A DNA stretch of 64,000 nt from positions 59,774-123,773 of the forward strand of contig CADCGC010000002.1 of the NCBI GenBank assembly GCA_902800905.1, in the 5' to 3' direction. The notes under the pieces are model-generated. The model was not told where the DNA came from. It saw nothing but the letters and a program-made list of their open reading frames with translations, and searched no databases. A program made the translations under genes and the position numbers. Below are positions 6,558 through 30,677 of the stretch, in pieces. This DNA is from an uncultured Erysipelotrichaceae bacterium. GTDB taxonomy: Bacteria > Bacillota_I > Bacilli_A > RFN20 > CAG-826. Numbering within the stretch: position 1 is the stretch's first letter; every line of letters starts with the position of its first letter.

Positions 6558-9290
6558 ATGAATTTTAAGAAAACTTCATTATTGTTTGTTGCTGGTATGG
6601 CAGGAGCAATGTTAGTTTCGTGTACTCCAAAAACAACATACTACAACATTAAATTTTTTAACGATGACGGAACTCTTCTTCAGGAATCTAAAGTAGAAAA
6701 AGACAAGATGCCTGAATACAAGGGAAATGATCCGGTTAAGGACGCAACAGCAGAGTATACATATACTTTTAGTGGTTGGAGTCCTGAACTTGCACCTGCA
6801 ACCAAGGATGCATCTTACACTGCGACATATTCCTCTACGAAGAACTCTTACACAATCAAGTTTGTCAATTATGATGGCGAAGAATTATCTAGTCAATCAT
6901 ATGAATATGGTGCGATGCCTGAATACACAGGAAACGACCCAGAAAAAGCACCAACAGTGGACACTGTTTATGAATTTAGTGGTTGGACTCCAGAAGTAGT
7001 TAGAGTTACAGGTAACGCCACATATACAGCGACATTTACAAGTTCTACAAGAAAATACACAGTTACTTTTGCCGACTGCAACCTTGACCCAGTAGAAGTT
7101 GAATATAATCAAACACTTGAAGAACCTGAAGATCCTGAAAAGGCAGCTACTGAGGATTATGTTTATTTCTTCACTGGCTGGACATTAAATGGCGAGCCAT
7201 ATGACTTTGATTCAAAAATAACTGGTGATATAGTCCTTAACGCTAATTGGGAAGCTGTCAGTGCTAAAGAACACGGAAATAGATGTACATACATTCATTA
7301 TCCGGAGAAGGAAGCAACATATTTAGAAGCAGGACACGCTGAATTCTGGTATTGCGAACTTCATAAAAATTATTTAGCAGAAGAACCAACCGTTGGAACA
7401 ATTGAAGAAGCCGAAGAAGATTTTGAAGGCACTGTACCCGAAGGCATCGAAGTTTATCCTGTTCTTGAAGGTGGAGACAAATATCTTACTATCGATGTTG
7501 GTGGTGATGACACTAAAGACAAAGCTGCTCTTTGGACAAAAGATAGATATGAAGATATTTTAGGAATTACTTTCAAAGCCAGAATCAGTGGTGGAAGAAA
7601 AGACGAGTCAAAGACCCCATGGATTGGATTCACATTTGATGCCGACCACACTTTATATAACAACCCAGTATTTGCTTCTGATAAATATGTCTTTGATAAT
7701 CACTGGCGTGTTTATTCAATTTCTGTTGACTTAAAAAACGGACCTGCAAACTTTGTTTACGCAAAAGGTGAGTTTGCTGAAGGAAGCAAGTTGGATATTG
7801 ATAACATTTCTATTACATACGCAGATGGAACAGCTTTTGAAAACTTTGATGGTGAAGAATCATTATTTGAATTTGATGAAGATGTAGCCAAATATAATGC
7901 GGTTAGAAAAGACAATACATTCTTTAGAATTAATATTGAAACCGACAAGCAAAACACTGGTGATAATGCATTAGGATTTTCTATTAAGAAATATGATTCA
8001 ATCTCTAAAGTCTCTTATAAGATGAGAGTTACTGCAGAAACTCCTGATGTTGATGATCACGGAACACCAAAATGGGCTGGTATTGGTGTTGCTAATAATC
8101 ATGACTTATACACTAATATGAGAACAGCGTCATACTTGTTTGATGGAGAATGGCATTCATATAATGCTTCATATACATTAGAAAGCGGATTTGTTAACCT
8201 TATTCATAATTCTGGCCAATTCTTTGCTGGAACAACGCTCGATTTCGATGATATTGAAATCACATATGAAGATGGCACTGTTGTCGATTCATTTGAAGAA
8301 GCATTTATATTTACTGGAACATTTGAATACGTTCAAACCAAAGACGCTCGTTATGCTCAATTTGCGTATCTTGAATCAGAAGAGATTTTACCTCCAACAA
8401 ATTGCTTTGCAAGAATCAATCTTTCAACAATGCAATCCTCATCTCCTTTATATTCAAATGAGATGTTTACAAATATCACAAATATCCAATTTGATTATCG
8501 TTTAACAACAAAAAAGAATGCTTGGTGGGGCTTTGGCATTTCAACATATGTTGAACCAACATGTTATGACACCGATCCGGGTCACGTTGATTGGAAAGTA
8601 ATGCCTGGAAATGGTAACGCAGATGGACAATGGCATAGAGAAGTATCTCTAGCGATGAATGGTGGTACAGGCAGATTTAAATTTGTTTTTGCCGCTAACG
8701 AATTTGATGCTACTGGTTCGACAATGGATTTAGACAACATTATTATCACTTATGATAATGGCAAGACTGCAGTATTTGACTTCTTAGGTGATATGCCAAT
8801 TAAGACAACTGCTTCATTCATTCCTGAAGAACCAGAAGAACCAGAAGTTTTAGTGGATTGCTATGCAAGAATCAACCTTTCTACAAACGAATCATTATCA
8901 CCATTTGTTTCAGTAGATCAATTTGAAGATATTAGCAATATTACATTTGACTATCGTTTGACCACTACAAAGAATTCTTGGTGGGGATTTGGTGTTTCTA
9001 CTAAAGATAATCCAAACGTCTATGATAGTGGATGTAATGTTTGTTGGAAAACAATTAGTGGAAACGGCACTCCTGATGGTGAGTGGCATCAAGGTTCTAT
9101 CAACATTACTGGAACAGGTAGATTTGTCTTCATCTTCGCTGCTGGTGAATTTGATTCAAGCGATTCTACACTTGATTTAGATAACATTGTTCTTACCTAT
9201 AATAGTGGAGAAACCGTAACATTTGATTTTACTGATGTAAGTAAATTTAATGTTAAAACAAATCTTGTTACTTTCATTCCACAAGAATAG
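6558..9290 (+). CDS. surface lipoprotein with three Listeria/Bacteroides-type (Flg_new) repeats, a Cys/His mini-module and two tandem WWGFG beta-sandwich (CBM-like) domains
   Basis: Start trimmed to MNFKK behind GAAAGGAA. Lipobox LVSC. The repeat architecture is read directly from the translation. No catalytic motif recognised. Confidence 0.6.
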   Translation: MNFKKTSLLFVAGMAGAMLVSCTPKTTYYNIKFFNDDGTLLQESKVEKDKMPEYKGNDPVKDATAEYTYTFSGWSPELAPATKDASYTATYSSTKNSYTIKFVNYDGEELSSQSYEYGAMPEYTGNDPEKAPTVDTVYEFSGWTPEVVRVTGNATYTATFTSSTRKYTVTFADCNLDPVEVEYNQTLEEPEDPEKAATEDYVYFFTGWTLNGEPYDFDSKITGDIVLNANWEAVSAKEHGNRCTYIHYPEKEATYLEAGHAEFWYCELHKNYLAEEPTVGTIEEAEEDFEGTVPEGIEVYPVLEGGDKYLTIDVGGDDTKDKAALWTKDRYEDILGITFKARISGGRKDESKTPWIGFTFDADHTLYNNPVFASDKYVFDNHWRVYSISVDLKNGPANFVYAKGEFAEGSKLDIDNISITYADGTAFENFDGEESLFEFDEDVAKYNAVRKDNTFFRINIETDKQNTGDNALGFSIKKYDSISKVSYKMRVTAETPDVDDHGTPKWAGIGVANNHDLYTNMRTASYLFDGEWHSYNASYTLESGFVNLIHNSGQFFAGTTLDFDDIEITYEDGTVVDSFEEAFIFTGTFEYVQTKDARYAQFAYLESEEILPPTNCFARINLSTMQSSSPLYSNEMFTNITNIQFDYRLTTKKNAWWGFGISTYVEPTCYDTDPGHVDWKVMPGNGNADGQWHREVSLAMNGGTGRFKFVFAANEFDATGSTMDLDNIIITYDNGKTAVFDFLGDMPIKTTASFIPEEPEEPEVLVDCYARINLSTNESLSPFVSVDQFEDISNITFDYRLTTTKNSWWGFGVSTKDNPNVYDSGCNVCWKTISGNGTPDGEWHQGSINITGTGRFVFIFAAGEFDSSDSTLDLDNIVLTYNSGETVTFDFTDVSKFNVKTNLVTFIPQE
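6637..7260 (+). repeat. 3 tandem ~70-aa repeats (Y.Y.F.GW.P.......Y.A.(Y/F)), Listeria-Bacteroides/Flg_new-like
   Basis: YTYTFSGWSPELAP..ASYTATYSST, YEFSGWTPEVVR..ATYTATFTSS and YFFTGWTLNGEP..DIVLNANWEA. Confidence 0.55.
8403..9260 (+). repeat. tandem duplication of a ~150-aa beta-sandwich module (C(F/Y)ARINLST...FDYRLTT.KN.WWGFG(I/V)ST...DG.WH...TG.GRF.F.FAA.EFD...ST.DLDNI..TY)
   Basis: The two copies are ~60-70% identical at the DNA level, for example tgctttgcaagaatcaatctttc vs tgctatgcaagaatcaacctttc and ggtggggctttggcatttc vs ggtggggatttggtgtttc. Confidence 0.7.
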
Positions 9291-9304
9291 ATTTAAATAA
9301 TAAT

Positions 9305-9328
9305 TGGTCTGGTTTAAGCCAGACCTTT
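9305..9328 (+). terminator. rho-independent terminator after the surface lipoprotein gene
   Basis: GGTCTGG-tttaag-CCAGACC followed by TTTT. Confidence 0.6.
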
Positions 9329-9344
9329 TCGTTGGAGTGTCATT

Positions 9345-13522: not shown

Positions 13523-13523
13523 T

Positions 13524-15668: not shown

Positions 15669-15750
15669 TAATTCTTATATAACAAATTATAAATTGTTTT
15701 TCCCCATCAATATATTTTTTTGATTAGAATTGAAAAAAAATAATTCTATT

Positions 15751-15779
15751 TTGTGTGTATGTATTTACAGGCGTATAAT
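15751..15779 (+). promoter_or_regulatory. putative promoter TTGTGT-N17-TATAAT for the 15-kb surface-glycan operon
   Basis: TATAAT at about 15774-15779, 25 nt upstream of the ATG at 15804. The divergent intergenic region 15669-15803 also contains the inverted repeat AGAATT-N10-AATTCT at about 15726-15747. Confidence 0.4.
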
Positions 15780-15803
15780 TTGTGTATATCGAGATTTTGA
15801 ATT

Positions 15804-16703
15804 ATGAAAAAAGCTAAACGCAAGCATAATTCTCGTTCTTATCTGCTAACCAAAAGAGAAAAAATCATTTTAGGTATTGTTTTTGTTTTGCTTCTAATCT
15901 ATGCTTTGTCTCTTATTTTCCCATTCTTCTTTTTGCTGATGAATTCTTTCAAGGATGAAGTTGAATATTTTTATGACTCAACAGGTTTCCCAAAGACTCC
16001 AACATTTGAGAATTATATTACTTTATTTAGTGGTTATAAGGTTGGAACAGGTATTGGTGATGGCGAAGCCACTATTGGAGAGATGTTCTGGAATTCTATC
16101 TCACTAGCGGTTGTTGAAACAGTCACATCAATGTTCTTTACTTGCTGTGCAGCTTATGTTTTAGCAAAATACAAATTCCCGGGAAATAAATTCTTATACA
16201 CCTTTGTTATTGTTAGCTCTGTTGTTCCTACCATTGCAGCTATTTCTGCTACATATCGATTGATGTCAGATATTCAATTAATTGGAACATTTATTGGAAT
16301 GATTATTATGAACTGTGGCGCCTTTACTGGTGGGTTCTTATATATTCACAGCTATTTCAAGAGTATCCCTTGGTCATTTGCGGAATCTGCGATGATTGAT
16401 GGGGCAAGTGATTTTAAAATTTTCTTTAGAATTATGATTCCAATGGCGAAGAACGGAATCCTTACTTTCACTATTTTGAGATTTTTGGGATTTTGGAACG
16501 AATATTGGATTCCATATTTGTTCTATCCAAACCATCCAACTTTAGGTGTTGGATTGACTCTTTTAAAAGCAGAAGCTGTTAATACAGGTAGTTACACGAT
16601 GTTATTTGCTGCAATGATCGTGGCAATCGTTCCTATTTTGATTTTCTACGCTATATTCCAAAAACAATTATTATCAAATACTATCGACGGAGGATTGAAA
16701 TAA
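15804..16703 (+). CDS. carbohydrate ABC transporter permease (MalG/AraQ/LplC-like)
   Basis: 6 TM helices. EAA loop ESAMIDGASDFKIFFRIMIPMAKNG. Confidence 0.8.
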   Translation: MKKAKRKHNSRSYLLTKREKIILGIVFVLLLIYALSLIFPFFFLLMNSFKDEVEYFYDSTGFPKTPTFENYITLFSGYKVGTGIGDGEATIGEMFWNSISLAVVETVTSMFFTCCAAYVLAKYKFPGNKFLYTFVIVSSVVPTIAAISATYRLMSDIQLIGTFIGMIIMNCGAFTGGFLYIHSYFKSIPWSFAESAMIDGASDFKIFFRIMIPMAKNGILTFTILRFLGFWNEYWIPYLFYPNHPTLGVGLTLLKAEAVNTGSYTMLFAAMIVAIVPILIFYAIFQKQLLSNTIDGGLK

Positions 16704-16710
16704 TTAAGTT

Positions 16711-17625
16711 ATGAATGTCCAAGTGTTGAATAAGAAAAAGAAGAAAAAGATTAACGTTAGGCGAGCGCTTTTTATCGCTGGAATGTTAGCGATTCCACTC
16801 ATTCAATTTGGAATATTCTTTGTTTATGTAAATATCAATTCTATCTTGTTGACATTTAGAGTTGTTGATCCAATCACTGGTACATACGGATGGGGACTAG
16901 ACAATTATCAAGACTTCTTCTATCGATTCACTGAATATCCTGATTACAAAGATGCGATATTTAATTCGTTGATGTTTGGTCTTAATGATTTGCTCCTTGT
17001 TTTGATATCTCTTGTTTTAGCGTATTTCTTCTTTAAGAGAATACCTGGCACTCAATTCTTTAGAATTATATTCTTCTTACCATCTATTATCTCTATTGTT
17101 ATTTATACAATGGCGTATTCATTGATGTTTAAGGCTGGCTCAGGTCCAATCAACGTTTTAATTACTTCTTTAGGAGGAGAGGAGCCAGATTGGCTACTTG
17201 ATGAAAACCTAGCAAGAATGCTTGTTATGATTTATTGTTTGTGGGTTGGTACCGGATATAACATTTTGATTTTTGGTGGTGCGATGGCAAACATCAATAC
17301 TGAAGTTATTGAGTACGCTAAACTCGACGGTGTCGGCATGTTTAGAGAATTATTCCAAGTTATTCTCCCGATGATTTGGCCAACACTATCGGTTGCATTC
17401 ATTGGTAGTGTTACTACTGTCTTTACATTATTTATTCAAGTTAAATTAATCGTTGGTGATTCGTTTGGAACACCTCGAACAATCGCATTCTTGATTAACG
17501 ACAATGTTATGAGTAATCAGGAAAAAGCCGCCACAATTGGTATTATTTTCACCGTTGTTGCTACCCCGGTTATTTTACTTGTCAGAAAACTTATTGATTA
17601 CGTTGGAAAGAAATTTGGTTATTGA
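16711..17625 (+). CDS. carbohydrate ABC transporter permease (MalF/AraP/LplB-like)
   Basis: EAA loop EYAKLDGVGMFRELFQVILPMIWP. Multiple TM helices. Confidence 0.8.
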   Translation: MNVQVLNKKKKKKINVRRALFIAGMLAIPLIQFGIFFVYVNINSILLTFRVVDPITGTYGWGLDNYQDFFYRFTEYPDYKDAIFNSLMFGLNDLLLVLISLVLAYFFFKRIPGTQFFRIIFFLPSIISIVIYTMAYSLMFKAGSGPINVLITSLGGEEPDWLLDENLARMLVMIYCLWVGTGYNILIFGGAMANINTEVIEYAKLDGVGMFRELFQVILPMIWPTLSVAFIGSVTTVFTLFIQVKLIVGDSFGTPRTIAFLINDNVMSNQEKAATIGIIFTVVATPVILLVRKLIDYVGKKFGY

Positions 17626-17646
17626 TATAAATTGGAGGCCATATTT

Positions 17647-19956: not shown

Positions 19957-21430
19957 TAAAGATAGAATTATTTCTTCAATAGGATTTGTTCTAACTCTTG
20001 TTCTTCCTTCTTGTAATGCAGGACAACTAAATGTCCCTGCTTTTGAGCATGACCCTAATAAGAGAATTCATATTACCGCTTATTCAGGTCCAACAAGAGC
20101 GAAATTAGTTACTCCAACTAGTCCAGAAACCCTTACTGAAGAGCATATGAGAAAAGTCTCTGAAGCAGGCTTTACAAAGATTCTTGCTCTATATGAAGGC
20201 GCTGGTAGACAAGTAGGCAATGATACCTATGAAATCATTGAAAATCTATCCCAAAAAGCGCAAGAGGACGCCTTAATTGCTTTAGACTTAGCGGAACAAT
20301 TTGGCATCAAATACTATGTCAGAGACTGGTCATTTTATGGAATGGTTAAGCAATACGCTGACCCAACATATAACCATCCTGCCATTTTAACTGATGAGCA
20401 ATATGACAAAGTGCTTAAGAAGATGTTCGATGAAAATAACCAATATATCCATCATCCTGCTTACGCTGGTAATTTCTGTCATGATGAGCCGTTTTATAAC
20501 GAGCTTGATCGTATCGCAGTTCAAGTTGATTTATACCAAAAATATATGGCAGAACAAAATGCTTATGGTGAGCCGATTGTTAATCTTTTACCAATGACCG
20601 CTGGCGCAGACGCTTTCAGTGGACATTCATATTATGAATATGTTGATCATTATTTTGATTTAATCGCACCAAAAGTTGGCTTTGTTTCTTATGACTTCTA
20701 TCCATTTAGAGAAGATAAAGATGATGGAAGCTATTTGAAAGATTTATATGTTCCAAACCTTAACCTTATGGCGACAAAATGCAAGGATAACAATATTGAT
20801 TTAAGAACATTTATCCAAGCTGAAGGTGATTTTACCGGAACAAGAAGCATGACTGGTGCGGCTGATTTCAGATTCCAAATCTACACTGAACTTGCCTTTG
20901 GTTCTAAAGAAATTATTTATTATGAATACGCAAATGCGAAGAGCCAGGCAGACCCAGAAGCCGATTATGCTTTATTTAATACTGAAACAGAAGAATATAA
21001 CTGGACATATGACGCTGCAAAACTTGTGAATAATGAAATTCATCAAATCGAAGATGCATATTTGCAATATAAGTGGGATGGTGTTATGTACAAGTGTGCA
21101 AATGAATTAATTGAGAATATTGGTTTCTCTTATCTTAAAGGAGAAAAATATACTTTTACTTCTCATCCACGTGTGAGCATTGAAAATTGTGAACGTGACG
21201 CTCTTATGGGTGTGTTTAAAAACGAAGCAAACGATGATGCGTTTATGCTAGTTAATTACACAGACCCATACTTCAAATTCAACAACAAAGTAACCCTTCA
21301 TTTTAATAATGCAAAAGGATTACTTATGTATCGTCTTGGACAAAAAATGGTGGTTGATCTCCCTTCTAGTGGTAACTATACATTTGATCTTTATCCTGGT
21401 GAAGGAAGATTCATTATTCCAATTAATTAA
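19949..21430 (+). CDS. lipoprotein, uncharacterised conserved enzyme-like family (paralogue 1 of 3, possibly a TIM-barrel glycoside hydrolase-like domain)
   Basis: GGAGG RBS. Lipobox LVLPSC. It shares the blocks ..EAGF.K.L.L(Y/F)EG, NLLP, YFD.IAP.VG(F/Y)VS(Y/F)D.Y, N(I/V)DLRTFI, F(R)FQIY..LAFG(S/A)KEIIYY.Y and W(S/K)WDG with 22878..24068 and with the C-terminal third of 24058..28371. Confidence 0.5.
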   Translation: MNNKDRIISSIGFVLTLVLPSCNAGQLNVPAFEHDPNKRIHITAYSGPTRAKLVTPTSPETLTEEHMRKVSEAGFTKILALYEGAGRQVGNDTYEIIENLSQKAQEDALIALDLAEQFGIKYYVRDWSFYGMVKQYADPTYNHPAILTDEQYDKVLKKMFDENNQYIHHPAYAGNFCHDEPFYNELDRIAVQVDLYQKYMAEQNAYGEPIVNLLPMTAGADAFSGHSYYEYVDHYFDLIAPKVGFVSYDFYPFREDKDDGSYLKDLYVPNLNLMATKCKDNNIDLRTFIQAEGDFTGTRSMTGAADFRFQIYTELAFGSKEIIYYEYANAKSQADPEADYALFNTETEEYNWTYDAAKLVNNEIHQIEDAYLQYKWDGVMYKCANELIENIGFSYLKGEKYTFTSHPRVSIENCERDALMGVFKNEANDDAFMLVNYTDPYFKFNNKVTLHFNNAKGLLMYRLGQKMVVDLPSSGNYTFDLYPGEGRFIIPIN

Positions 21431-21444
21431 AGGAGTTAATCAAA

Positions 21445-22854
21445 ATGAAAAAAGGAAACAAACTTATTGGAACATTGTTATTTAGTTTAGCAATGATTCT
21501 TCCATCTTGTGGTGGAACTCAAGATGACTTCAAAGGCACTTACATTGACTTTGGATTTTTGAAAGCAGGTATTGGCACTGAAGTTTATGAAAAGATCGCG
21601 GAAGCCTACCACACTGAACACCCAGATTACAAAGTCAAACTCCATGCCTCTATTGATATTAACAATATTGCGAAGAACTCATTTGAATCTGGAAAGAATA
21701 TCTATGATATTTATTCTTTAAGACAAAATAACGTTATTACTCAATACTATATCAAAGGATACTTGCTTGATTTAAAGGATGTTGTTTATAACGCTGAAAT
21801 TGCTGATGGAAAAACGCTTTTAGAATTATGTGATGAAAGCGTAATTGAGTATTCAAAATATTCCACAGAGAGAGATGGTGTGGTTGAAGACCACTTTGTC
21901 AGTGTTCCAGAGTTCGTTAATGTTAATGGCTATGTTTATAACAAGAAACTATTTGCACAACACGGATGGAAAGTTCCAAACACTACAGAAGAAATGAAAG
22001 CTCTATGCTTACAAATTGCTGCAGCAGGAATTTCGCCGATTGTTTTCTGTTCACCTAACTCCGCTGATGGATATGTCTATTATCTTTTAAACGGAATTAA
22101 TACTCAGTATGAAGGCATTCAAAATATGAAAGATGCCTATAAGTTTGAAAGTGCAGAAATCTTTAATCCTAGTAATCGTACAGGTAAACTTCACGCACTA
22201 CAAACCTTCAAAGATTTGTACAAGGAATCTAACGGACTAGTTTATCCTAACTCAATCAATATTGACGCTCAAGAAGCACAAAAAGCTTTGCTTTTAGGAA
22301 GAGCAGCAATGATGGTTAATGGTTCTTGGTTTGAAACAGAAATGAGAAAATTCATTGATCCAAGCAAGCATGAATTAGCGATGTTCAAAGTTCCTGAATA
22401 TTCTGAAGACGGAGAAATTCTCCATGCTCCTGGATACACAAACGATGGTAAAGGAATCATCGATAGTGAATATACCGCCGAATATGTTATTCCTACTTTG
22501 GCTCCTCATAAAGAAGCCGCAATCGATTTCTTAAAATTCATGCAAAGACCAGATATTTGTGAACTTTATACAAAGTATAGTAACAATATCCGTCCATTCA
22601 AATATAACAAAAACCCAGAGAGTAGTGTTTATTCAAATATGTCTTCATTTGGTAAAACTGTTTTACAACTCGCAAATGAAAACACACTCTTTGTCGCATC
22701 ATCAAAACATCCAAAATACATTCTTGGTGAAATCTCTTATTGGCCATCAGGTGATAGTGATAGGTATCACACCAATAGACTTCTTAGACAAGACAAAGAA
22801 CCAATTGATTGTTTAGAGGTTGAATATAATAACGCCAAGAAGGTTCTTGGATAG
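21445..22854 (+). CDS. lipoprotein, carbohydrate ABC transporter substrate-binding protein (family-1 SBP, LplA/MalE-like)
   Basis: AAGGAG RBS. Lipobox ILPSCGG. ~470 aa, the size and composition of a cluster-D sugar SBP. It sits between the permeases and the enzyme paralogues. Confidence 0.55.
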   Translation: MKKGNKLIGTLLFSLAMILPSCGGTQDDFKGTYIDFGFLKAGIGTEVYEKIAEAYHTEHPDYKVKLHASIDINNIAKNSFESGKNIYDIYSLRQNNVITQYYIKGYLLDLKDVVYNAEIADGKTLLELCDESVIEYSKYSTERDGVVEDHFVSVPEFVNVNGYVYNKKLFAQHGWKVPNTTEEMKALCLQIAAAGISPIVFCSPNSADGYVYYLLNGINTQYEGIQNMKDAYKFESAEIFNPSNRTGKLHALQTFKDLYKESNGLVYPNSINIDAQEAQKALLLGRAAMMVNGSWFETEMRKFIDPSKHELAMFKVPEYSEDGEILHAPGYTNDGKGIIDSEYTAEYVIPTLAPHKEAAIDFLKFMQRPDICELYTKYSNNIRPFKYNKNPESSVYSNMSSFGKTVLQLANENTLFVASSKHPKYILGEISYWPSGDSDRYHTNRLLRQDKEPIDCLEVEYNNAKKVLG

Positions 22855-22877
22855 ATTAAGAATAGGAAGATTTAACT

Positions 22878-24068
22878 GTGAACAAAGATATTAAATTTGG
22901 CTTTTGGAATTACGCTCCGTTTGGTGTTATTAGTAACAAAGAAGCGGTAAAAGATTGGGTTAATGCTGAATCTAATTTACCGATGAGCTTTGTTTATGAT
23001 TTTCATAACGGAAATAAAGAAGAAATAATTGAACTTCTTGATGAATGCCAAAAGAGCAACTTAAAGTTAATCATTTCTGATACCAGAACTATTTTTAGAA
23101 ATCTTTGTTCAGTCAGTGAAGAACAATTTAGAAAAGACGTTAAAGCGGCGTTTGATGATTTCGGTCATCATCCTGCCGCTTTCGGCTTCTTTGTTGGAGA
23201 CGAACCTTCTCCTGAAGAAACAGATTTATTTATAAAAGCCGTTAAAATTGTTAAAGAAGAAACGCCTGGACTAGTTCCTTTTGGTAATCTTCTTCCATAT
23301 TTTGGAGCAAGTGACCATGTCTTAGACATTGGGAACAAAAACTTTGAATATTATTCCAATCTAGTGGGCAAGATATTAAAAGAAACCGGACTTCCAGTTA
23401 TTGGATACGATCAATATAGCCAGTGCTTAGATGATTTAGGCAATCAAGAAACCGGAATCAATAGCTATTTCATTGGTTTGGACAAATATTATGACTTATG
23501 TAAGAAGAACGATTCTTCCTTCTATATCTCTCTTCTTTCGGTTGGACACTGGATGTATCGCGTTCCAAGTGAAGATGATATTAGATGGCAAATATCGACC
23601 GCTTTTGCTCATGGGGCTAGAGGAGTTATTTGGTTCTATTTCTATCAAGATGATAAAGATTATAGTTATCGCTTATCTCCATTTACAAATTATGGACTCA
23701 AGAAAACTCCGATGTACGATATCGTGAGTCGAGAACAATATCTCTTCAAAAAAACATTTGAAGATCAATTCAACAAAATGGAACTCGTTAATGTTTATCA
23801 TCTAGGCCATATATATGATGAAAACAAAAGATTTGTTTATGACGAATATATCAAAGATGTAATGGTAGATAGAAAACTTCCTGTTATCATTTCGTATTAT
23901 AAAGAATTTAATAGCGACAAAAAGTGGGTTTCATTTGTTAATGGATCTCAAAAATATGCGAGTATTTTAAGAATCACATTTTCTAAAGGACACAAAGAAG
24001 TGTTCTGGCTTGCTCCTGGAGAGATGAGACTATTTGATTTAGACGAGGTTTGCACTAGTGAAGAATAA
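22878..24068 (+). CDS. cytoplasmic paralogue (2 of 3) of the uncharacterised enzyme-like family
   Basis: GTG start and no signal peptide. HHPAAFGFFVGDEP, GNLLPYFG, GYDQY, GARGVIWFYFYQD correspond to the same blocks as in 19949..21430. Confidence 0.5.
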   Translation: MNKDIKFGFWNYAPFGVISNKEAVKDWVNAESNLPMSFVYDFHNGNKEEIIELLDECQKSNLKLIISDTRTIFRNLCSVSEEQFRKDVKAAFDDFGHHPAAFGFFVGDEPSPEETDLFIKAVKIVKEETPGLVPFGNLLPYFGASDHVLDIGNKNFEYYSNLVGKILKETGLPVIGYDQYSQCLDDLGNQETGINSYFIGLDKYYDLCKKNDSSFYISLLSVGHWMYRVPSEDDIRWQISTAFAHGARGVIWFYFYQDDKDYSYRLSPFTNYGLKKTPMYDIVSREQYLFKKTFEDQFNKMELVNVYHLGHIYDENKRFVYDEYIKDVMVDRKLPVIISYYKEFNSDKKWVSFVNGSQKYASILRITFSKGHKEVFWLAPGEMRLFDLDEVCTSEE

Positions 24069-27000
24069 AACCATATCTATTTTGTTTTTAGGAGTTATTG
24101 GAGTTGTCGCATCTGCGATAGCTTTATCGCACTCTCATGATGTTGCTTTAGCTAGTGGAACGGATGAACATTCAAGTTCATGCACCTGGAATCACTATTT
24201 AAGAGTTGAACCGACATATGAAAATGATGGAATACAAGAATATTATGTCTGCTGTTCTCATCATGAAAGCGTTCTAGAAAGACCAACACTTGGGACAATC
24301 GTTGATAAAGGCACTCCATCCTCTTCTTTTATCAGTGGTTTAGAAGATAATGATTTCAGATTAATTCCTTCATATCGAAAACAAGTTAAACCAGTTCAAG
24401 ATGAAATTGATGGGCTTTCTGAGGCGTTTAAGATATCTGATGGCAGTCAAATTGATAAAGCATATAACCTTTATAACAACACTAGTGAAGAGCTTAAAAC
24501 CTATGTTAATGATGTTTCAAAATTAGAAGGCATTTATGAGAGATACCACGAATCATATGATGTTCTTATCGATACAGTTAATAATGAATATCAATCAAAG
24601 ATATATAATTCGAATTATGATGTTGAACCAGTTTTAAATGAAAACGCTGGATATTGTTCTTCTTTTACTAATATCACTCCAACTGATGACAACTGGATTG
24701 GTTTTGGCACTTCAAAGACCACAAATATTTCAAACTATAGCGAGATATTGCTCTATGTATATAGCAACCTAAATTTCGATTGTGATTTTGATGTTAGGTA
24801 TTCTGGTAGCACTTTTGACTTAACAAACAAAGTTAAAGTTTATTCTAAATCATGGAGTGAAATAACAATTCCTCTTTCAACATTTATAACAAATCAATTG
24901 AAAGACTTATTTGTTGGTACATGGATTAGTGATGCTAGATATAACACTTTTGAGAATGGGTTTTTATTCTCTTCGCTTTACGGCGTTAAAAAGATTACTA
25001 CCCCAAGTAGAACATATATTGATTTGTCTGATGATCAAAAGACCACTGACACAGTCAACTTTGTTGGTGACAAATATATTGAAGACGTGAATTATGCAGC
25101 CTTTGTTTATTCTCCTGCTTATTCTGCTTCACTTGGAAAAGTTAACTTTATTACCACTCAACCATATAGCAACGTCACCTCTGTTAGTTTTGATGCGAAG
25201 ATCGATGGAACGGCGACAGGATGGTGGGGTATTGGCCACTCAACCTCTATTGAAAACGCAAGAATATATAACGGAATGTGCACAACCGGTGTCAAAAACA
25301 CTCAAAACGAATTCCAACATATCGCAATTAATGTTAGTGTAACTGACCCGGAATACATTTACTTTATTTTTGAAGTTGGAACATTTACTAAAAATGTCTA
25401 TATCGATAATGTCACTATCGTTAGTGGTGGAGTTGAATACACTGATGATTTTGATAGCGGTTCTTCAGCCTTATTTAATAATTCTTCATCAGTTTTAGGA
25501 AATGCAGTTAGCATTCAATTAATCAGTAGCGATGCTAAATTCTTATCACGTTCAGTAAAAGACTACTATGTTGAAGTTAGTCCATATAATTACGATACTT
25601 CGACATTATATACACGTTCATCTTATACAGGTGTTTATAAGGTTTCTTATGACGCAAAAGTTGATGGAACAATTGTTAATAATCTTTCAAACAATGAACA
25701 AATTTGGTGGGGTTTTGGTGTTACTGATGACCCAACAAACGTTTACTCTGGACTTCAATTTGTTAGAGAAGTGCTATCTACTGATAATGAATGGAAACAT
25801 TTTGAATATGAGATTCAAACTCCAGTTGATGGATATGTTCACTTTGTGTTCAATCCATTAAAGACGAATGTTCCTGTTCTTTTAGATAACATTACTTTCT
25901 TTACTGAAGGTAGTGTCTTTGTTGAAAACTTTACTGATGGGCTATCCACTTTATTTAATGTTGGCGCTCATCTTGATATTAAGAAGAAGAGCGACCCATC
26001 AATTACCTTCAATGGTGGAATTAACGCCTCAGAAAAAGACTATTCTGTCTTAATGGATATTTATAATTATGGCAACGTTTCTGGCAATGAAGCGACATTT
26101 AAAACAAAAGTTCCATATAACAACGTTACGAGTATCTCCTATGATATGAAGATTGATGGGACCATAACATTTACAAACACAGATCCATATTGGGTTGGTG
26201 TCGGTCATGACGCAAATCAAAACGCTAGTATCTATAAAGGACTTAGAACATCTAACACATTTACTACTAATGATGGTTGGATGAGATTTACATATACATT
26301 CTCTGGACTAGGCTTAGAATATTTCTTCTTTGTTTCTAATCCTGTTCACGCCCATAACAATGTTTATTTTGACAATGTCATTATTGTTAGTGATGGAGTG
26401 GAATACACTGATACATTTACCAACGGAAAGAGCGAACTATTTAATTTAGGTTCTTATGTTTCTTTACATTTTGAATCAGAAAGCATGACCGATGAAATTG
26501 CCTATAATGTATTAACAGAGAGTCAATGCTATTTTGAAGGTCCTCAATTTGTTAGAGATAATTTAGAAAATTATGAAGCCTTAGTGTATGGCTCTATTGC
26601 TCATCAAATTACAGGACAAGGAAGGTATGCGATTCTTATTTATAATGATTTGAATGTTGCGGAATATTTATTTGTTGATGATGAATATATTTCTTACTGT
26701 TCTAATACTTCAATAATTAATGCCACGTCTTATAATGGGCAGTCTTATAACATCAGTGTTTCAGTAGATGGAAGAATAACAATTAACAATCAGATTCTCG
26801 CTATTTCTAGTGGAGTTAATGATTCACTTAAATTTGTGTCGTTCTTTAGCCAAGGTTCGGTTGTCTTTACTGATATTTCTTTAGATTCAACTTATAGAGA
26901 AATTCATACTTCTGAAACAATTGATGGAATAGAAGTTCCTTACTTATATTCAGAAGATAATATTGTGTTTAACGCATATGGTTCTCCAACAGTTGCCGAT

Positions 27001-28371
27001 TGGAATGGTGTGAAAGATAGTAACCCAACTATGGCGACTGATGAAATCTTCCAAGATTACTATGACGCTGGATTTAGAAAGTGCTTGCCACTTTTTGAAG
27101 GACGAACTGGAGCAAGATATGACTTCAATACTTATTATGATTTGTATCTTGAAGCAACTGGTTCGCAAAAAGAATCATACAAAAACCAATGTATCCAAAA
27201 ACTCGACATTATTTGTGAAAAAGCCGACAGAGACGCGATGGAAATAATGTCTGTTGCCTCTAAATATGGAATTAAATATATTGTTCTTAATTCAATTATT
27301 TTTGAACTAATTGGACAAACTACTCCAAACGGAAACAATATTCAGATTGAAGATTATCCATGGATTTTTGATCGTGTCTTTAGAGATGACAGCGAATATT
27401 TCTATCAAGTTCAATACGTTGGTAACTTTATGCAAGATGAACCAATTGGTGTTGAAGGACTTGAAAGATTATATGCGGCTGTTGTTTTGTATTATCAATA
27501 TACAGCGGCTTTAGGAATTGAAAGTGAACCTGTTATTAATCTACTTCCTGGAAACTACACGGATAATAATTATGTCGCTTATCTTGATTATTATTTTGAA
27601 CATATTGCTCCTCTTGTTGGATATGTTAGCTTTGACCAATATGTCTTACAAGTTTCTAATGGCACTTATTCAGTGAAGTCCACACACTTATCTAACTTAT
27701 ATTTATTAGCCTCACGAGCAAAACAATATAATGTCGATTTAAGAACGTTCATTTTCCCAAGATGTCAGGATGAGGGAAGTAATAGAGGCATTACAATGGC
27801 GGATGAACTAAGGTTCCAAATTTACGCCAATTTGGCTTTTGGTGCTAAAGAAATCATCTATTATGGTTATACAACTCATAACAGCACAAATGAAACAGAA
27901 GGTCTTGTTAATATGTATACCGGAGAGAAGAGCGATGTATATTACTACGCTAAAGAAGTTAATAACGAAGTATTATCTTTCGGTCAAGCATATATGCATT
28001 TCTCATGGGATGGAATTATTGGTAAAGACACTGGTGGGTGGCTAAGTAAAAATACCTGCCTAACTCAATTAAGTAAACTTAATTCGATGAATAGTCACGC
28101 TGGATTATCATCTTTCTCTGTTAATAAGAACTCACTCATTGGTTGCTTCAAAGATAGTGATTCTCAATACGCATATATTCTTATGTATTATGGCGATCCA
28201 AAAACCGCAAGTGGAACAGACACAATTCAATTAACTTTCTTAGACAAATATAATGGCGTTATTGTTTATCAAAACGGTGGAAAACACGCTTATCGAATTG
28301 ATAATCATAAGCAATCTATTACTCTTAATCCTGGTTGTGGAGCGTTTGTTATCCCGGTAACTTTAAATTAG
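24058..28371 (+). CDS. 1437-aa surface protein with an N-terminal anchor, a Cys/His mini-module, 3-4 WWGFG beta-sandwich (CBM-like) modules, and a C-terminal enzyme-like domain (paralogue 3 of 3)
   Basis: GTG start overlapping the upstream gene. N-terminal hydrophobic segment ILFLGVIGVVASAIAL. The repeats and the C-terminal homology (NVDLRTFIFPRCQDEG..ELRFQIYANLAFGAKEIIYYGY..YMHFSWDG) are read directly from the translation. Confidence 0.6.
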   Translation: MKNKTISILFLGVIGVVASAIALSHSHDVALASGTDEHSSSCTWNHYLRVEPTYENDGIQEYYVCCSHHESVLERPTLGTIVDKGTPSSSFISGLEDNDFRLIPSYRKQVKPVQDEIDGLSEAFKISDGSQIDKAYNLYNNTSEELKTYVNDVSKLEGIYERYHESYDVLIDTVNNEYQSKIYNSNYDVEPVLNENAGYCSSFTNITPTDDNWIGFGTSKTTNISNYSEILLYVYSNLNFDCDFDVRYSGSTFDLTNKVKVYSKSWSEITIPLSTFITNQLKDLFVGTWISDARYNTFENGFLFSSLYGVKKITTPSRTYIDLSDDQKTTDTVNFVGDKYIEDVNYAAFVYSPAYSASLGKVNFITTQPYSNVTSVSFDAKIDGTATGWWGIGHSTSIENARIYNGMCTTGVKNTQNEFQHIAINVSVTDPEYIYFIFEVGTFTKNVYIDNVTIVSGGVEYTDDFDSGSSALFNNSSSVLGNAVSIQLISSDAKFLSRSVKDYYVEVSPYNYDTSTLYTRSSYTGVYKVSYDAKVDGTIVNNLSNNEQIWWGFGVTDDPTNVYSGLQFVREVLSTDNEWKHFEYEIQTPVDGYVHFVFNPLKTNVPVLLDNITFFTEGSVFVENFTDGLSTLFNVGAHLDIKKKSDPSITFNGGINASEKDYSVLMDIYNYGNVSGNEATFKTKVPYNNVTSISYDMKIDGTITFTNTDPYWVGVGHDANQNASIYKGLRTSNTFTTNDGWMRFTYTFSGLGLEYFFFVSNPVHAHNNVYFDNVIIVSDGVEYTDTFTNGKSELFNLGSYVSLHFESESMTDEIAYNVLTESQCYFEGPQFVRDNLENYEALVYGSIAHQITGQGRYAILIYNDLNVAEYLFVDDEYISYCSNTSIINATSYNGQSYNISVSVDGRITINNQILAISSGVNDSLKFVSFFSQGSVVFTDISLDSTYREIHTSETIDGIEVPYLYSEDNIVFNAYGSPTVADWNGVKDSNPTMATDEIFQDYYDAGFRKCLPLFEGRTGARYDFNTYYDLYLEATGSQKESYKNQCIQKLDIICEKADRDAMEIMSVASKYGIKYIVLNSIIFELIGQTTPNGNNIQIEDYPWIFDRVFRDDSEYFYQVQYVGNFMQDEPIGVEGLERLYAAVVLYYQYTAALGIESEPVINLLPGNYTDNNYVAYLDYYFEHIAPLVGYVSFDQYVLQVSNGTYSVKSTHLSNLYLLASRAKQYNVDLRTFIFPRCQDEGSNRGITMADELRFQIYANLAFGAKEIIYYGYTTHNSTNETEGLVNMYTGEKSDVYYYAKEVNNEVLSFGQAYMHFSWDGIIGKDTGGWLSKNTCLTQLSKLNSMNSHAGLSSFSVNKNSLIGCFKDSDSQYAYILMYYGDPKTASGTDTIQLTFLDKYNGVIVYQNGGKHAYRIDNHKQSITLNPGCGAFVIPVTLN
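25138..26450 (+). repeat. three tandem ~140-aa beta-sandwich modules (V(S/K)(F/Y)DAK(I/V)DGT....WWG(I/F)G....(I/V)Y.G......W.....(Y/F)..........F.F......V.(I/L/F)DN(V/I).....G.....E.FT.G.S.LFN)
   Basis: The three copies end in VYIDNVTIVSGGVEYTDDFDSGSSALFN, VLLDNITFFTEGSVFVENFTDGLSTLFN and VYFDNVIIVSDGVEYTDTFTNGKSELFN. Confidence 0.65.
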
Positions 28372-28391
28372 TTTAGTAAGGAGTTGGTTTT

Positions 28392-30677
28392 ATGAAAAAA
28401 TCATTTATTTTATCCGCATTAATTCTAAGTCTTTCTCTTTTGAGTGGCTGCACAAGTAATTCCGATAGTGGAGGTGGAGGAGGAGATCCTATTGACCCAG
28501 AAGAACAATGTGAACATAGTTATAAATATCACCAAAAGGTTGAAGCCACTTGTACTGAAGATGGAAACGAAGCATATTTTTCATGTTCCAATTGCGACAA
28601 GATTTTTAACGAAAAGAAGCAAGAAACCCCATATTCTGAACTTGTTATCCCTGCCTTGGGACATGATATTGGACACGTTAATGCGACAACTCCACGCAAT
28701 TGCTTGGAACTAAGTGTCATTGAACATTATCACTGTAGTAGATGTGAAAAGAACTTTGAGGATGAAGCCGCTACTATTGAACTCGATTCAATCGATGGAT
28801 ATTATGGTGAGCATAATTTCGTTGATTACCCTGCCAAAGCCGCTTCTTGCGCTGAAGAAGGGAACATTGCCTATGCCGAATGTTCTTATTGCCATAAAAT
28901 ATATTCAATTGATCATCAAACCCAGATTACTGACGGTTCATATATTATTGAAAAAACACAACACCATTTGACACATCATGAAGCTGTTCAATTTGAAAAT
29001 ATTGAATATTGGGAATGCTCTGAATGTGAAAAAAAATTCTCTGATGAAGACGGAGGCGAAGAAGTGGAAAATGTTTCTATTCGTGATGAACACGATTTAT
29101 TAAATGATAATGTTAAGAATTATCTTGCCGCGACTACTGAAGCAGATCAAATCAATGCTTTAAGAGTATCAACTCCATTTAATAATCAAGTTAGAAAAGT
29201 CCTTTCATGGAAAACTAATGATAATGGACCATACACTATTGAAGTCTCTGAGAGCCAAGATTTTACCAATCCTATGACATTTACTGCTTCTAATTCACCA
29301 TTAACTCTTCCTGGAACATTATTCCCAGGACATACATATTATTGGAGAGTAAAAGATAGTTCTGATCAATTAGTAGTGACCATTGAAAGATTTATTGTTG
29401 ATGGCACTTATCCAGTTAGAACTCTATTCGTTGATGGAGTCTCTAATGTTAGAGACGCTGGAGGATGGACTGCTAAAGACGGAAACAAAGTCCTTTATGG
29501 AAAAATCATTAGAGGTGGAAGATTAAGAGATATCACTGAGGATGGCAAAAAAACATTCTTAGAAGATTTAGGCATTAAAACCGAACTTGATTTAAGAGGC
29601 GATGGTGTAAGTGATATTTCTGATTCTAGACTCACATATATCAAGCAAGGACTTAACCAATACACAATGCTAGTTCCTAATTATCTTTCTCCTATCGTTC
29701 AAGGAAAAGGTGATTTAAGATATGGGTTTGACACCACAACTCCTAATGCGCTAGCGGCAATTTTCAATGTCTTAGCCGATTCCTCTAATTATCCAATTTA
29801 TTATCACTGCAATGCTGGAGCAGATAGAACCGGTTCATTAACTTATTTAATCAATGGTCTTCTTGGTGTTTCTTATGAAGATTTAACAAGAGATTTTGAA
29901 TTAACAACATTCTCTGCTCAAGGAAACAGATTCCGTAGTGGTGTTAGTGGAAATAGTTTTGTTTCTACTGGTGAGATGGCAGGAATCTATGAATGTGACT
30001 CCCTTAACTATGTCGCTTGGGGAAAACTTCACGAGCTTATTTCCACCAATTACGCGCAAGAAAACGGACAATTATGTTCGGCGATTGAATATTATTTGAA
30101 GAAAGTTTGTAAGATTTCTGATGAAACAATTAAACAAGTTAGAAGAAACCTCTTAGGAAAAGATGTTGAATTTGATGAAGTGGTTGTGGAAGACGAAAGC
30201 ACAGTGTTTACTCCTGAAAATGGTAACCAGACATTAGCAAATCAAATAGAATATGAAAAAGGTAATTTCTTCGGTAAATTGTCCTATAAGTTCACTGCCT
30301 ATACTCCAACTGGCCAAGGCAAAGTTGACCACTATATTTATCATAATTTAGATATTATTAATAATCCTGCCTACACAAAATTCCATTTTGATGTCTATGT
30401 TCCAGCGACAAGTGCAAAGTGGAACACAAGTGAAGGAAAAGATACTGGAGCAAGATTTGCAATCTCCGCAAAAGCTTCATCGACTACACGTATTGAATTT
30501 AGTGATGAATTCTCTTCATCATCTACTAATAAATACAAGATTATTACTGATGAGTGGATGACTTTTGAAATTGAGATTTCTCAGTTTAGTAATCTCATTC
30601 GTTTTGCGTTCTATTTGCCTTATGCTACTGAGCAAATTCCAGCGATAGTGTATTTTGCAAACGTCCACGTTTCTTAA
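28392..30677 (+). CDS. lipoprotein with N-terminal Cys/His-rich repeats, an FN3-like segment, a CX5R protein-tyrosine-phosphatase-fold domain (Y_phosphatase3/Siw14-like) and a C-terminal beta-sandwich
   Basis: Lipobox LSLLSGCTS followed by a Gly5 linker. Repeated C.H..Y.....A(T/S)C.E.GN.AY..CS.C.K.(F/Y). The PTP-domain entry is NVRDAGGW...LYG..IRGGRL, and the P-loop is HCNAGADRTG at about 29804-29833. Confidence 0.6.
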   Translation: MKKSFILSALILSLSLLSGCTSNSDSGGGGGDPIDPEEQCEHSYKYHQKVEATCTEDGNEAYFSCSNCDKIFNEKKQETPYSELVIPALGHDIGHVNATTPRNCLELSVIEHYHCSRCEKNFEDEAATIELDSIDGYYGEHNFVDYPAKAASCAEEGNIAYAECSYCHKIYSIDHQTQITDGSYIIEKTQHHLTHHEAVQFENIEYWECSECEKKFSDEDGGEEVENVSIRDEHDLLNDNVKNYLAATTEADQINALRVSTPFNNQVRKVLSWKTNDNGPYTIEVSESQDFTNPMTFTASNSPLTLPGTLFPGHTYYWRVKDSSDQLVVTIERFIVDGTYPVRTLFVDGVSNVRDAGGWTAKDGNKVLYGKIIRGGRLRDITEDGKKTFLEDLGIKTELDLRGDGVSDISDSRLTYIKQGLNQYTMLVPNYLSPIVQGKGDLRYGFDTTTPNALAAIFNVLADSSNYPIYYHCNAGADRTGSLTYLINGLLGVSYEDLTRDFELTTFSAQGNRFRSGVSGNSFVSTGEMAGIYECDSLNYVAWGKLHELISTNYAQENGQLCSAIEYYLKKVCKISDETIKQVRRNLLGKDVEFDEVVVEDESTVFTPENGNQTLANQIEYEKGNFFGKLSYKFTAYTPTGQGKVDHYIYHNLDIINNPAYTKFHFDVYVPATSAKWNTSEGKDTGARFAISAKASSTTRIEFSDEFSSSSTNKYKIITDEWMTFEIEISQFSNLIRFAFYLPYATEQIPAIVYFANVHVS
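28510..29040 (+). repeat. three to four Cys/His-rich ~40-aa repeats, possibly small metal-binding modules
   Basis: CEHSYKYHQKVEATCTEDGNEAYFSCSNCDKIF; NCLELSVIEHYHCSRCEKNF; ASCAEEGNIAYAECSYCHKIY; EYWECSECEKKF. Confidence 0.5.

Follow-up and report, generated by a model that had tools for sequence, protein, structure and literature searches.

A putative zinc-binding Cys/His module in three anchored surface proteins of an uncultured Erysipelotrichaceae bacterium

Introduction

Three predicted exported proteins, which we will call P1, P2, and P3, are encoded within a 64,000-nucleotide stretch of the genome of an uncultured Erysipelotrichaceae bacterium (GenBank assembly GCA_902800905.1, contig CADCGC010000002.1, positions 59,774 to 123,773 of the forward strand). 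We will refer to this whole stretch as the window. All three proteins contain a small module that is rich in cysteine and histidine, which was first noticed in an earlier note that was made from the DNA sequence of the window. What is this module, and why is it found in three different surface proteins? We found that the repeat in P3 belongs to no named family, that the copies in P3 are ordinary new members of a very large set of extracellular repeats, and that P1 and P2 each contain a highly conserved, single-copy variant whose putative ligands are permuted. We lean towards the view that the module is a zinc-stabilized all-beta unit that acts as an anchor-proximal spacer in Gram-positive-type surface proteins.

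Results

The module recurs in three anchored proteins

All of the peptides that were quoted in the earlier note are found in the window's sequence, and the sites of the module lie within ~10-50 nt of where the note had placed them (Table 1). The recurrence of the module across three exported and anchored proteins is genuine, as it is supported by both hidden Markov models (HMMs) and BLASTP. We compared two HMMs to the 494 six-frame open reading frames (ORFs) of the window. An HMM that was built only from non-window proteins found all four copies in P3 (bit scores in Table 1; domain E-values from 2.6e-17 to 3.7e-6), and no ORF besides P3 was significant. An HMM that was built only from orthologues of P2 matched P1 (E = 2e-6) and nothing in the window beyond it. 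Also, residues 240-289 of P1 are 40% identical to residues 32-81 of P2 (BLASTP, E = 2.9e-7).

The copies in P3 are in tandem (28509-29093 overall), with a unit of ~50 amino acids (aa) and the signature H-x11-C-x10-C-x2-C. Copies 2-4 are 20-35% identical to copy 1. The note had counted three to four copies in P3: four are present, but the fourth is degenerate and its ATC segment is gone. P1 and P2 each contain one copy of a shorter variant, H-x3-C-x3-H...Y...C-x2-H. No Pfam or NCBIfam model matches any of these modules, which agrees with the statement that they could not be assigned to a named domain. The sole solid Pfam domain among P1, P2, and P3 is the Y_phosphatase3 domain of P3, and scanning P1 against Pfam gave weak, sub-threshold matches only.

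Table 1. Coordinates and features of P1, P2, P3, and their Cys/His modules. Scores are from the HMM that was built from non-window proteins. TM, transmembrane.
Feature	Residues	Position in window	Strand	Description	Score (bits)
P1		6537..9290	+	917-aa lipoprotein (from the ORF list), lipobox LVSC; three ~70-aa repeats at the N-terminus, followed by a single Cys/His module and by repeated ~150-aa beta domains	
P1 module	246-289	7272..7403	+	HGNRCTYIHYPEKEATYLEAGHAEFWYCELHKNYLAEEPTVGTI; candidate ligands H246, C250, H254, C273, H276	
P2		24058..28371	+	1437 aa; hydrophobic TM anchor at the N-terminus, then module, helical segment, repeated beta domains, C-terminal ~480-aa domain (paralogous to the ORF at 19949-21430)	
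P2 module	38-81	24169..24300	+	HSSSCTWNHYLRVEPTYENDGIQEYYVCCSHHESVLERPTLGTI	
P3		28392..30677	+	761-aa lipoprotein, lipobox LSGC; four Cys/His repeats, then Y_phosphatase3 (PF13350, aa 347-588, Pfam E = 8e-29), then C-terminal domain	
P3 copy 1	40-90	28509..28661	+	canonical; predicted ligands H42, C54, C65, C68; terminates in IPALG, next residue H91	57.5
P3 copy 2	91-139	28662..28808	+	Cys/His: H91, H95, C104, H112, H114, C115, C118	33.6
P3 copy 3	140-190	28809..28961	+	predicted ligands H141, C153, C164, C167	31.5
P3 copy 4	191-234	28962..29093	+	degenerate, without ATC segment; Cys/His: H191/H192, H195/H196, C209, C212	21.8 (covers profile positions 18-40 only)

The repeat of P3 forms a very large family

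Searching for homologues of the N-terminus of P3 yielded 17 proteins that are built of the P3-type unit, and these supplied the HMM of non-window proteins described above. From external copies, we made a 56-position profile, and we used HMMER to compare it to 1.84 billion representative proteins. The profile matched 27,904 proteins (each representing a cluster) with E ≤ 1e-3, of which 15,748 had E ≤ 1e-10 and 3,917 had E ≤ 1e-30; a single protein could have as many as 55 matched stretches. With at least ~28,000 protein clusters and no family model, this repeat is among the larger unannotated extracellular modules.

The top 150 proteins gave us 1,386 unique full copies in which to describe the conservation of the repeat; this sample is biased toward good matches. 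His3, Gly19, Cys26, and Cys29 are each present in 100% of these copies, and Cys15 is present in 92%. Where Cys15 is lost, His and Glu are the commonest substitutes (21% each). The consensus is LGH-x-L-x-K-V-x-A-K-x-ATCTE-x-GN-x-x-YY-x-C-x-x-C-x-K-x-F-x-D-x-x-G-x-x-EI...IPALGH. Copies 1-3 of P3 fit the pattern H3-x11-C15-x3-G19-x6-C26-x2-C29 and have the "...P-A-L-G-H" junction; copy 4 fits in part.

When we scanned ten members of the family against Pfam, no model spanned the unit. The only matches to the repeats were summed, sub-threshold fragments of zinc fingers (RYYR-CCHC or PF23674, zf_UBZ, zf-C2H2, and Zn_ribbon_TFIIS). The partner domains in these ten proteins are surface modules: choline-binding repeats, BspA-type leucine-rich repeats (LRR_5), cohesin, dockerin, and a Shr-like domain.

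Several members of the family, including P0059, P0100, and P0150, exceed the whole-sequence cutoffs of the eukaryotic families zf_UBZ, zf-C2H2, Zf_2nd_IFT121, or RYYR-CCHC, and they do so only via summed partial stretches; for RYYR-CCHC (cutoff of 27 bits), no individual stretch reaches the cutoff. Multi-copy repeats of this kind are likely to cause zinc fingers to be falsely annotated in bacterial proteomes. Also, many members of the family (such as P0002, P0004, P0005, and P0007) contain a second Cys/His unit of ~35 aa that is interleaved with the canonical repeat and has the pattern H-x-W...D-x-x-x-H-W-x-x-C-x-x-C...H. Copy 4 of P3 looks intermediate between the two units.

A related region in an IgA protease

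Among proteins in the PDB, copy 1 of P3 is similar to residues 860-911 of chain 9qa6_A, which is an IgA protease (sequence search, E = 5.8e-4). The aligned segment of the protease, AATCTTAGNSAYYTCDGCDKWF...IPAPGH, corresponds to subdomain I of a domain known as ZBD1. Assuming that A31 is the first residue of the chain, as it is for the constructs of the corresponding paper, we infer that residues 860-911 lie inside ZBD1 in UniProt numbering. The M64 IgA protease of Thomasclavelia ramosa (UniProt:Q9AES2) has two such domains, ZBD1 (E879-T1008) and ZBD2 (G1101-T1171), which are described as three-stranded antiparallel sheets with predicted tetrahedral Cys/His zinc sites at the interfaces between subdomains (PMC12237041). 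Subdomain I of ZBD1 distantly resembles the zinc domain of TFIIS (PMC12237041). In another study, ZBD1 and ZBD2 are called CTD2 and CTD4; no homologue was found with PDBeFold, and small-angle X-ray scattering (SAXS) of the isolated CTD2 indicated a fully extended rod, in agreement with its AlphaFold model (PMC12415215). The authors proposed that CTD2 and CTD4 have an "uncharacterized periscope domain fold", by which the protease would be projected from the cell surface (PMC12415215). In our search of the literature, the repeat was described only for this IgA protease, in these two papers from 2025. The ~35-aa unit that is interleaved with the canonical repeat is probably the equivalent of subdomains II and III of the ZBDs.

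The repeat of P3 and the ZBDs have several features in common. Both would consist of three-stranded beta units that are joined end to end, with clusters of Cys and His at the junctions that are predicted to be structural zinc sites. The ZBDs sit between the catalytic part of the protease and its cell anchor, and they too lack a Pfam model and a homologue of solved structure. There are also differences. The ZBDs are C-terminal, near a sortase or TM anchor, while the modules in the window are N-terminal, near a lipid or TM anchor. The attached domain is an M64 peptidase in the IgA protease, and here it is a domain of the tyrosine phosphatase family or unclassified domains from a glycan locus. 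Finally, neither paper describes a single short unit with permuted ligands, as in P1 and P2.

The module as a probable anchor-proximal spacer

In our proposal, the module is an extracellular domain of small size and all-beta structure, which one tetrahedral zinc site holds together in lieu of a hydrophobic core. In the canonical unit, as in copies 1-3 of P3, one zinc ion would be bound by His3, Cys15 (the Cys of "ATC"), and the Cys26-x2-Cys29 pair. His3 would emerge directly from the "...PALG-H" junction of the preceding unit, after its last strand. Given the location of His3 at the junction, the metal would lock each unit to the previous one, so that a tandem array would form a stiff rod. In each of P1, P2, and P3, the module comes after the membrane anchor and ahead of the functional domains, so it would hold enzymatic or binding domains off the cell surface.

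The position of the module relative to the anchors is consistent with this proposal. The note had placed the module near the N-terminus and just after the membrane anchor in all three proteins. This is correct for P2 and P3, whose modules begin 10-20 aa past the anchor, but not for P1, where the three ~70-aa repeats precede the module. The P1-like proteins from related loci (see below) have the module directly after the anchor, at the same distance as in P2 and P3, and P1 of the window has simply gained its three repeats ahead of the module. More broadly, the repeats begin a few residues beyond the lipobox Cys in the family members P0003 and P0007, and they end right before a C-terminal TM helix in P0005, P0006, P0010, and P0015. 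In a survey of 167 proteins, which relied on rough heuristics, the array starts within 21 aa of the Cys in 21 of the 47 proteins with a lipobox-like motif, and it ends within 35 aa of the helix in 15 of the 39 proteins with a C-terminal TM segment. Arrays that reach 55 copies, adjoin lipid, TM, or cell-wall anchors, and are combined with many unrelated domains suggest that the repeat behaves as a stalk.

The variant in P1 and P2 is also conserved, both in sequence and in its genomic context. Using the full-length P2 protein, we found 13 full-length orthologues (44-54% identity). The note had stated that a lack of Cys/His conservation across orthologues would refute the module, but all of the Cys and His residues of the P2 module (H38, C42, H46, C65, C66, H68, and H69) are invariant across these 13 proteins. 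Of 1394 segments of 44 aa that were compared along P2 in the 14 sequences, the module ranks first in conservation, with 57% invariant columns versus 21.5% overall. The other invariant positions include W44, Y47, R-V-E-P-T-Y54, G58, and E-Y-Y-V. Across all 18 modules of the P1/P2 type, five Cys/His positions are always present: H at -1, C at 3, H at 7, C at 26, and H at 29.

We also compared positions 15804-28371 of the window to three metagenomic contigs from ENA (L002, 1-14365; L003, 1-14320; and L004, 1-14326). The gene order is conserved, with ~50% identity between the proteins. In the contigs, the order is the ABC permeases, a 757-781-aa protein, a ~490-aa protein, a binding protein, a P1-like protein, a ~390-aa protein, and P2, so that relative to the window, there is an extra (P1-like) gene between the genes for the binding protein and the 392-aa protein. 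The P1-like products have 689-863 aa, and residues ~46-377 of these proteins align with residues 245-596 of P1 (E = 1e-35 to 1e-42). Their modules, which are next to the N-terminal anchor, match the P2-type HMM with E = 1e-14 to 1e-16 and retain H, C, H, C, C, and H. In the window, the P1 gene is instead 15 kb upstream, and P3 is not found downstream of P2 in the three contigs. The neighborhood in the window is a glycan-utilization locus, with GH2, a GH78-like rhamnosidase, GH95, two ABC permeases, a solute-binding protein, and several large proteins that have no family assignment.

Several observations weigh against a zinc-stabilized spacer. The variant in P1 and P2, with its 57% invariant columns, is more conserved than a passive spacer requires, and a single 44-aa unit would give little reach, although no part of the 1437-aa P2 is more constrained. 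The seven invariant Cys/His residues in P2, or six in the P1-like proteins, are more than one tetrahedral site needs. Among 1,814 copies of the canonical repeat, Cys15 is only weakly associated with the presence of the upstream or downstream junction His, in an analysis that is confounded by incomplete local alignments. The canonical HMM alone gives insignificant scores for P1 (6.8 bits) and P2 (4.4 bits), and the membership of P1 and P2 in the family depends on a profile-profile comparison over 30 columns. Finally, the zinc sites in the two papers on the IgA protease are putative, and the evidence there comes from AlphaFold models and SAXS only.

With its excess of Cys and His residues and its high constraint, the variant might also take part in a specific interaction or hold a second metal site. 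The note had suggested a common docking or assembly module, and in a version of this idea, modules of the P1/P2 type would bind a common partner or each other, and so form a surface complex near the ABC transporter. This would explain why no segment of P2 is more conserved than its single-copy variant, why the module is common to two protein families from one conserved locus on four contigs, and why there are surplus invariant Cys/His residues as well as surface-type invariant residues (W44, N45, R49, E51, and E61). But there is no other protein with the module, and no obvious receptor, in the window or in the three related contigs; P1, P2, and P3 show no similarity to dockerins or cohesins; and, for want of a hydrophobic core, a small domain must keep many of its residues fixed just to fold. 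Also, the wider family consists of long tandem stalk arrays that are joined to many unrelated domains, which does not fit a common docking module. Overall, we consider docking to be unlikely.

A more specific proposal is that the module of P1 and P2 is a dedicated membrane-proximal metal module that joins both of the giant proteins of the glycan locus in one surface complex. The two modules could bind each other or a shared partner such as the binding protein of the transporter, and the extra invariant His and Cys residues could form a second metal site that is inter-molecular or regulatory. This is decidedly unlikely, but if it were true, it would be a new assembly principle for the nutrient-capture machines of low-GC bacteria with membrane-anchored locus proteins.

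P1 and P2 contain a probable ligand-permuted variant of the repeat

Is the module of P1 and P2 really related to the repeat of P3? We used hhalign to compare a profile of P1 and P2 to 23 canonical copies (89% probability, E = 2.2e-6) and to compare 18 modules of the P2 type to 500 canonical copies (92.5%, E = 4.8e-7). Both comparisons gave the identical register over 30 columns: Y54 of P2 aligns with Cys15, G58 with Gly19, C65 with Cys26, and H68 with Cys29. The hhalign block starts at W44, and by its spacing (12 residues ahead of position 15), C42 is at the position of His3. In both types, position 15 is 4 residues from G19, and G19 is 7 residues from C26. The motif E-[AP]-T-x...G..E-[YF]-[YW]-x-C is also common to the two types, and both end in P-x-x-G-[TH], which in the variant resembles the P-A-L-G-H junction. 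Tyr is also found at position 15 in canonical copies of two family members (P0003 and P0006). Thus, the note's view that all three proteins share one "Cys-Thr" was mistaken: the first Cys of P1 and P2 takes the position of His3, and Tyr replaces the Cys of "ATC-T" in P3.

Structure prediction with AlphaFold 2 gave all-beta models across the modules, with a pLDDT score of ~90 for copies 1-3 of P3 and for residues ~40-110 of P2. The confidence was low for copy 4 of P3 (pLDDT of ~35-63). Strands were predicted at residues 62-65 and 71-72, in protein numbering, of both the P2 module and copy 1 of P3.

Alternatively, the module of P1 and P2 could be a separate novel domain that is unrelated to the repeat of P3 and has arrived at similar short Cys/His motifs by convergence. 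The low scores of P1 and P2 against the canonical HMM would fit with this, as would the absence of the F-x-D...G..EI hairpin from the variant, which is ~8 aa shorter. Also, sequence searches of the PDB with the P1 and P2 modules returned noise and did not retrieve the IgA protease. However, two independent pairs of alignments gave hhalign probabilities of 89-92.5% with a single register; the spacings are identical, motifs are shared, and the predicted strand pattern matches; and canonical copies with Tyr15 do exist. We conclude that an unrelated origin is improbable and, with moderate confidence, from the alignments and the predicted structures, that the modules of P1 and P2 belong to the fold family of the canonical repeat.

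The orthologues of P2 came solely from the search with the full-length protein. A word-indexed search for homologues with the alignment of the P1 and P2 modules yielded no candidates, and scans with degenerate patterns of GTDB genomes and JGI metagenomes, using either the module alignment or the full-length P2, yielded no confirmed relatives.

Given this register, the site in P1 and P2 would be rebuilt, with Cys at the position of His3, Tyr in place of Cys15, and C-x2-H in place of C-x2-C. The predicted ligands in P2 are C42, C65, and H68, and the fourth is probably one of the invariant His that lie four residues upstream (H38) or downstream (H46) of C42. The resulting composition of two His and two Cys would match the predicted sites 4-6 of the IgA protease.

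A zinc site is favored over disulfides

The note had also raised the possibility of a disulfide-stabilized knot. In this reading, pairs of Cys would be oxidized outside the cell and the His would be incidental, without any metal. The module is extracellular, where disulfides are common, and its Cys positions are invariant. But both the canonical repeat and the P2 module contain three Cys, which is an odd number, while P1 has only two Cys along with three conserved His. Furthermore, His3 is as invariant as the Cys, and Cys15 is mainly replaced by His or Glu. In the related IgA protease, no disulfides were seen, and a reducing agent was needed for monodispersity (PMC12237041). These patterns of conservation favor a zinc site, and we view a disulfide knot as quite improbable.

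Another idea, which was raised as a speculation for CTD2 and CTD4 (PMC12415215), is that the module responds to metals, so that its occupancy by zinc or another metal would switch the stalk between rigid and floppy or would regulate the attached enzymes: the extra invariant residues H46, C66, and H69 of P2 could build a second and weaker site, and the ZBDs hamper the cleavage of IgA in vitro (PMC12237041), but full coordination by Cys and His usually indicates a high-affinity structural site, C66 and H69 are missing from P1, and the idea is purely speculative, so we consider it most improbable.

Relationship to known domain families

Classical zinc ribbons (the C-terminal domain of TFIIS and Rpb9/A12.2/C11) have a small antiparallel sheet of three strands in which a hairpin bears a C-x2-C knuckle, and the module is predicted to resemble them in this. 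In contrast, the first knuckle of the module is formed by one Cys and a His that is 12 residues upstream, instead of by C-x2-C. Zinc ribbons are also intracellular components of the nucleic-acid machinery, whereas the module is extracellular and is found in tandem arrays. Searches of solved structures by fold gave nothing significant, in agreement with both papers on the IgA protease, although the weak Foldseek matches include recurrent Rpb9-type chains. The note had likened the spacing to a treble clef or a zinc ribbon; with the first CxxC knuckle missing and no solved relative, neither description applies to the module, as a classical zinc ribbon or treble clef has two knuckles.

The best Pfam match of the repeat is PF23674 (RYYR-CCHC). 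It spans profile positions ~30-55 (of 79) and corresponds to the "YY-x-C-x2-C" part. We do not consider the repeat to be a member of PF23674: P3 scores 19.0 bits and a dimer of the consensus scores 25.4 bits, as compared to a cutoff of 27 bits, and one third of the profile is covered. P1 and P2 did not match PF23674 with E ≤ 10. We found no mention of PF23674 in our search of the literature.

Periscope and stalk domains such as the G5-E repeats of SasG/Aap, SHIRT, and Rib (PMC8201768, PMC9704523) also form tandem rods, mostly of single-layer beta structure, that project functional domains. CTD2 and CTD4 have been placed explicitly in the functional class of periscope domains (PMC12415215). But these domains have no kinship to the Cys/His repeat in sequence or in fold. 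Also, zinc mediates the dimerization of Aap between molecules, via His, Asp, and Glu, whereas the sites proposed here are intramolecular and fully coordinated by Cys and His. P1, P2, and P3 are not periscope proteins, which have near-identical DNA repeats in variable number: the copies in P3 are just 20-35% identical, and P1 and P2 contain a single copy. The module may nevertheless work as a stalk element. A dockerin- or cohesin-type module was also rejected, as P1, P2, and P3 have no such match in Pfam, and no partner-like protein is encoded in the window or in the three related contigs.

A putative zinc-binding rod was already noticed in the IgA protease in 2025, so what is new here is the permuted, single-copy variant of P1 and P2. 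Carriers of the repeat include surface proteins of gut and rumen-type Firmicutes, among them the IgA protease, which is of therapeutic interest. Defining the family would improve the annotation of thousands of "hypothetical" surface proteins, and it would explain spurious matches to C2H2, UBZ, and zinc-ribbon models in bacterial proteins. The window offers two compact pieces for testing: residues 36-235 of P3 (3-4 units) and residues 38-81 of P2 (a single unit with swapped ligands).

Neighboring proteins and domains

Some of the other domains in P1, P2, P3, and their neighbors are also of note. P3 has a Y_phosphatase3 domain behind a repeat stalk on a surface lipoprotein, which is an unusual setting for a domain of the tyrosine phosphatase family. 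The only relatives of P3 that we found are at least 90% identical to it.

The C-terminal ~480 aa of P2 (residues 958-1434, 26929-28371) are 32% identical to a 493-aa lipoprotein (19949-21430; E = 7e-61), which in turn resembles a 396-aa protein (22878-24068; E = 1e-8). None of the three has a match in Pfam. Given that they are encoded in a glycan locus beside a sugar ABC transporter, they may form an unclassified family that is similar to glycoside hydrolases.

P1 (7500-9290) and P2 (~25080-26400) both contain repeated beta domains of ~150 aa with the motif WWG[FI]G, and residues 602-910 of P1 align with residues 342-639 of P2 (E = 1.6e-8). The sole Pfam signal for these domains is a sub-threshold match to MAM (24.4 bits, versus a cutoff of 26.4). 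They might represent an undescribed kind of carbohydrate-binding module.

The three ~70-aa repeats of P1 (residues 33-240, ~6633-7256) lie between the lipobox and the module. They match DUF6281 (E = 1e-4) and the divergent InlB B-repeat Flg_new_2 (E = 0.17) only weakly. The P1-like homologues from the three related contigs lack these repeats. The IgA protease also has an InlB-B-repeat-like domain, CTD1, immediately before its zinc domain.

Finally, the gene at 17632-19956 encodes a 774-aa protein with an N-terminal signal sequence, a C-terminal TM anchor, and no match in Pfam; it is conserved in all three related contigs (757-781 aa).

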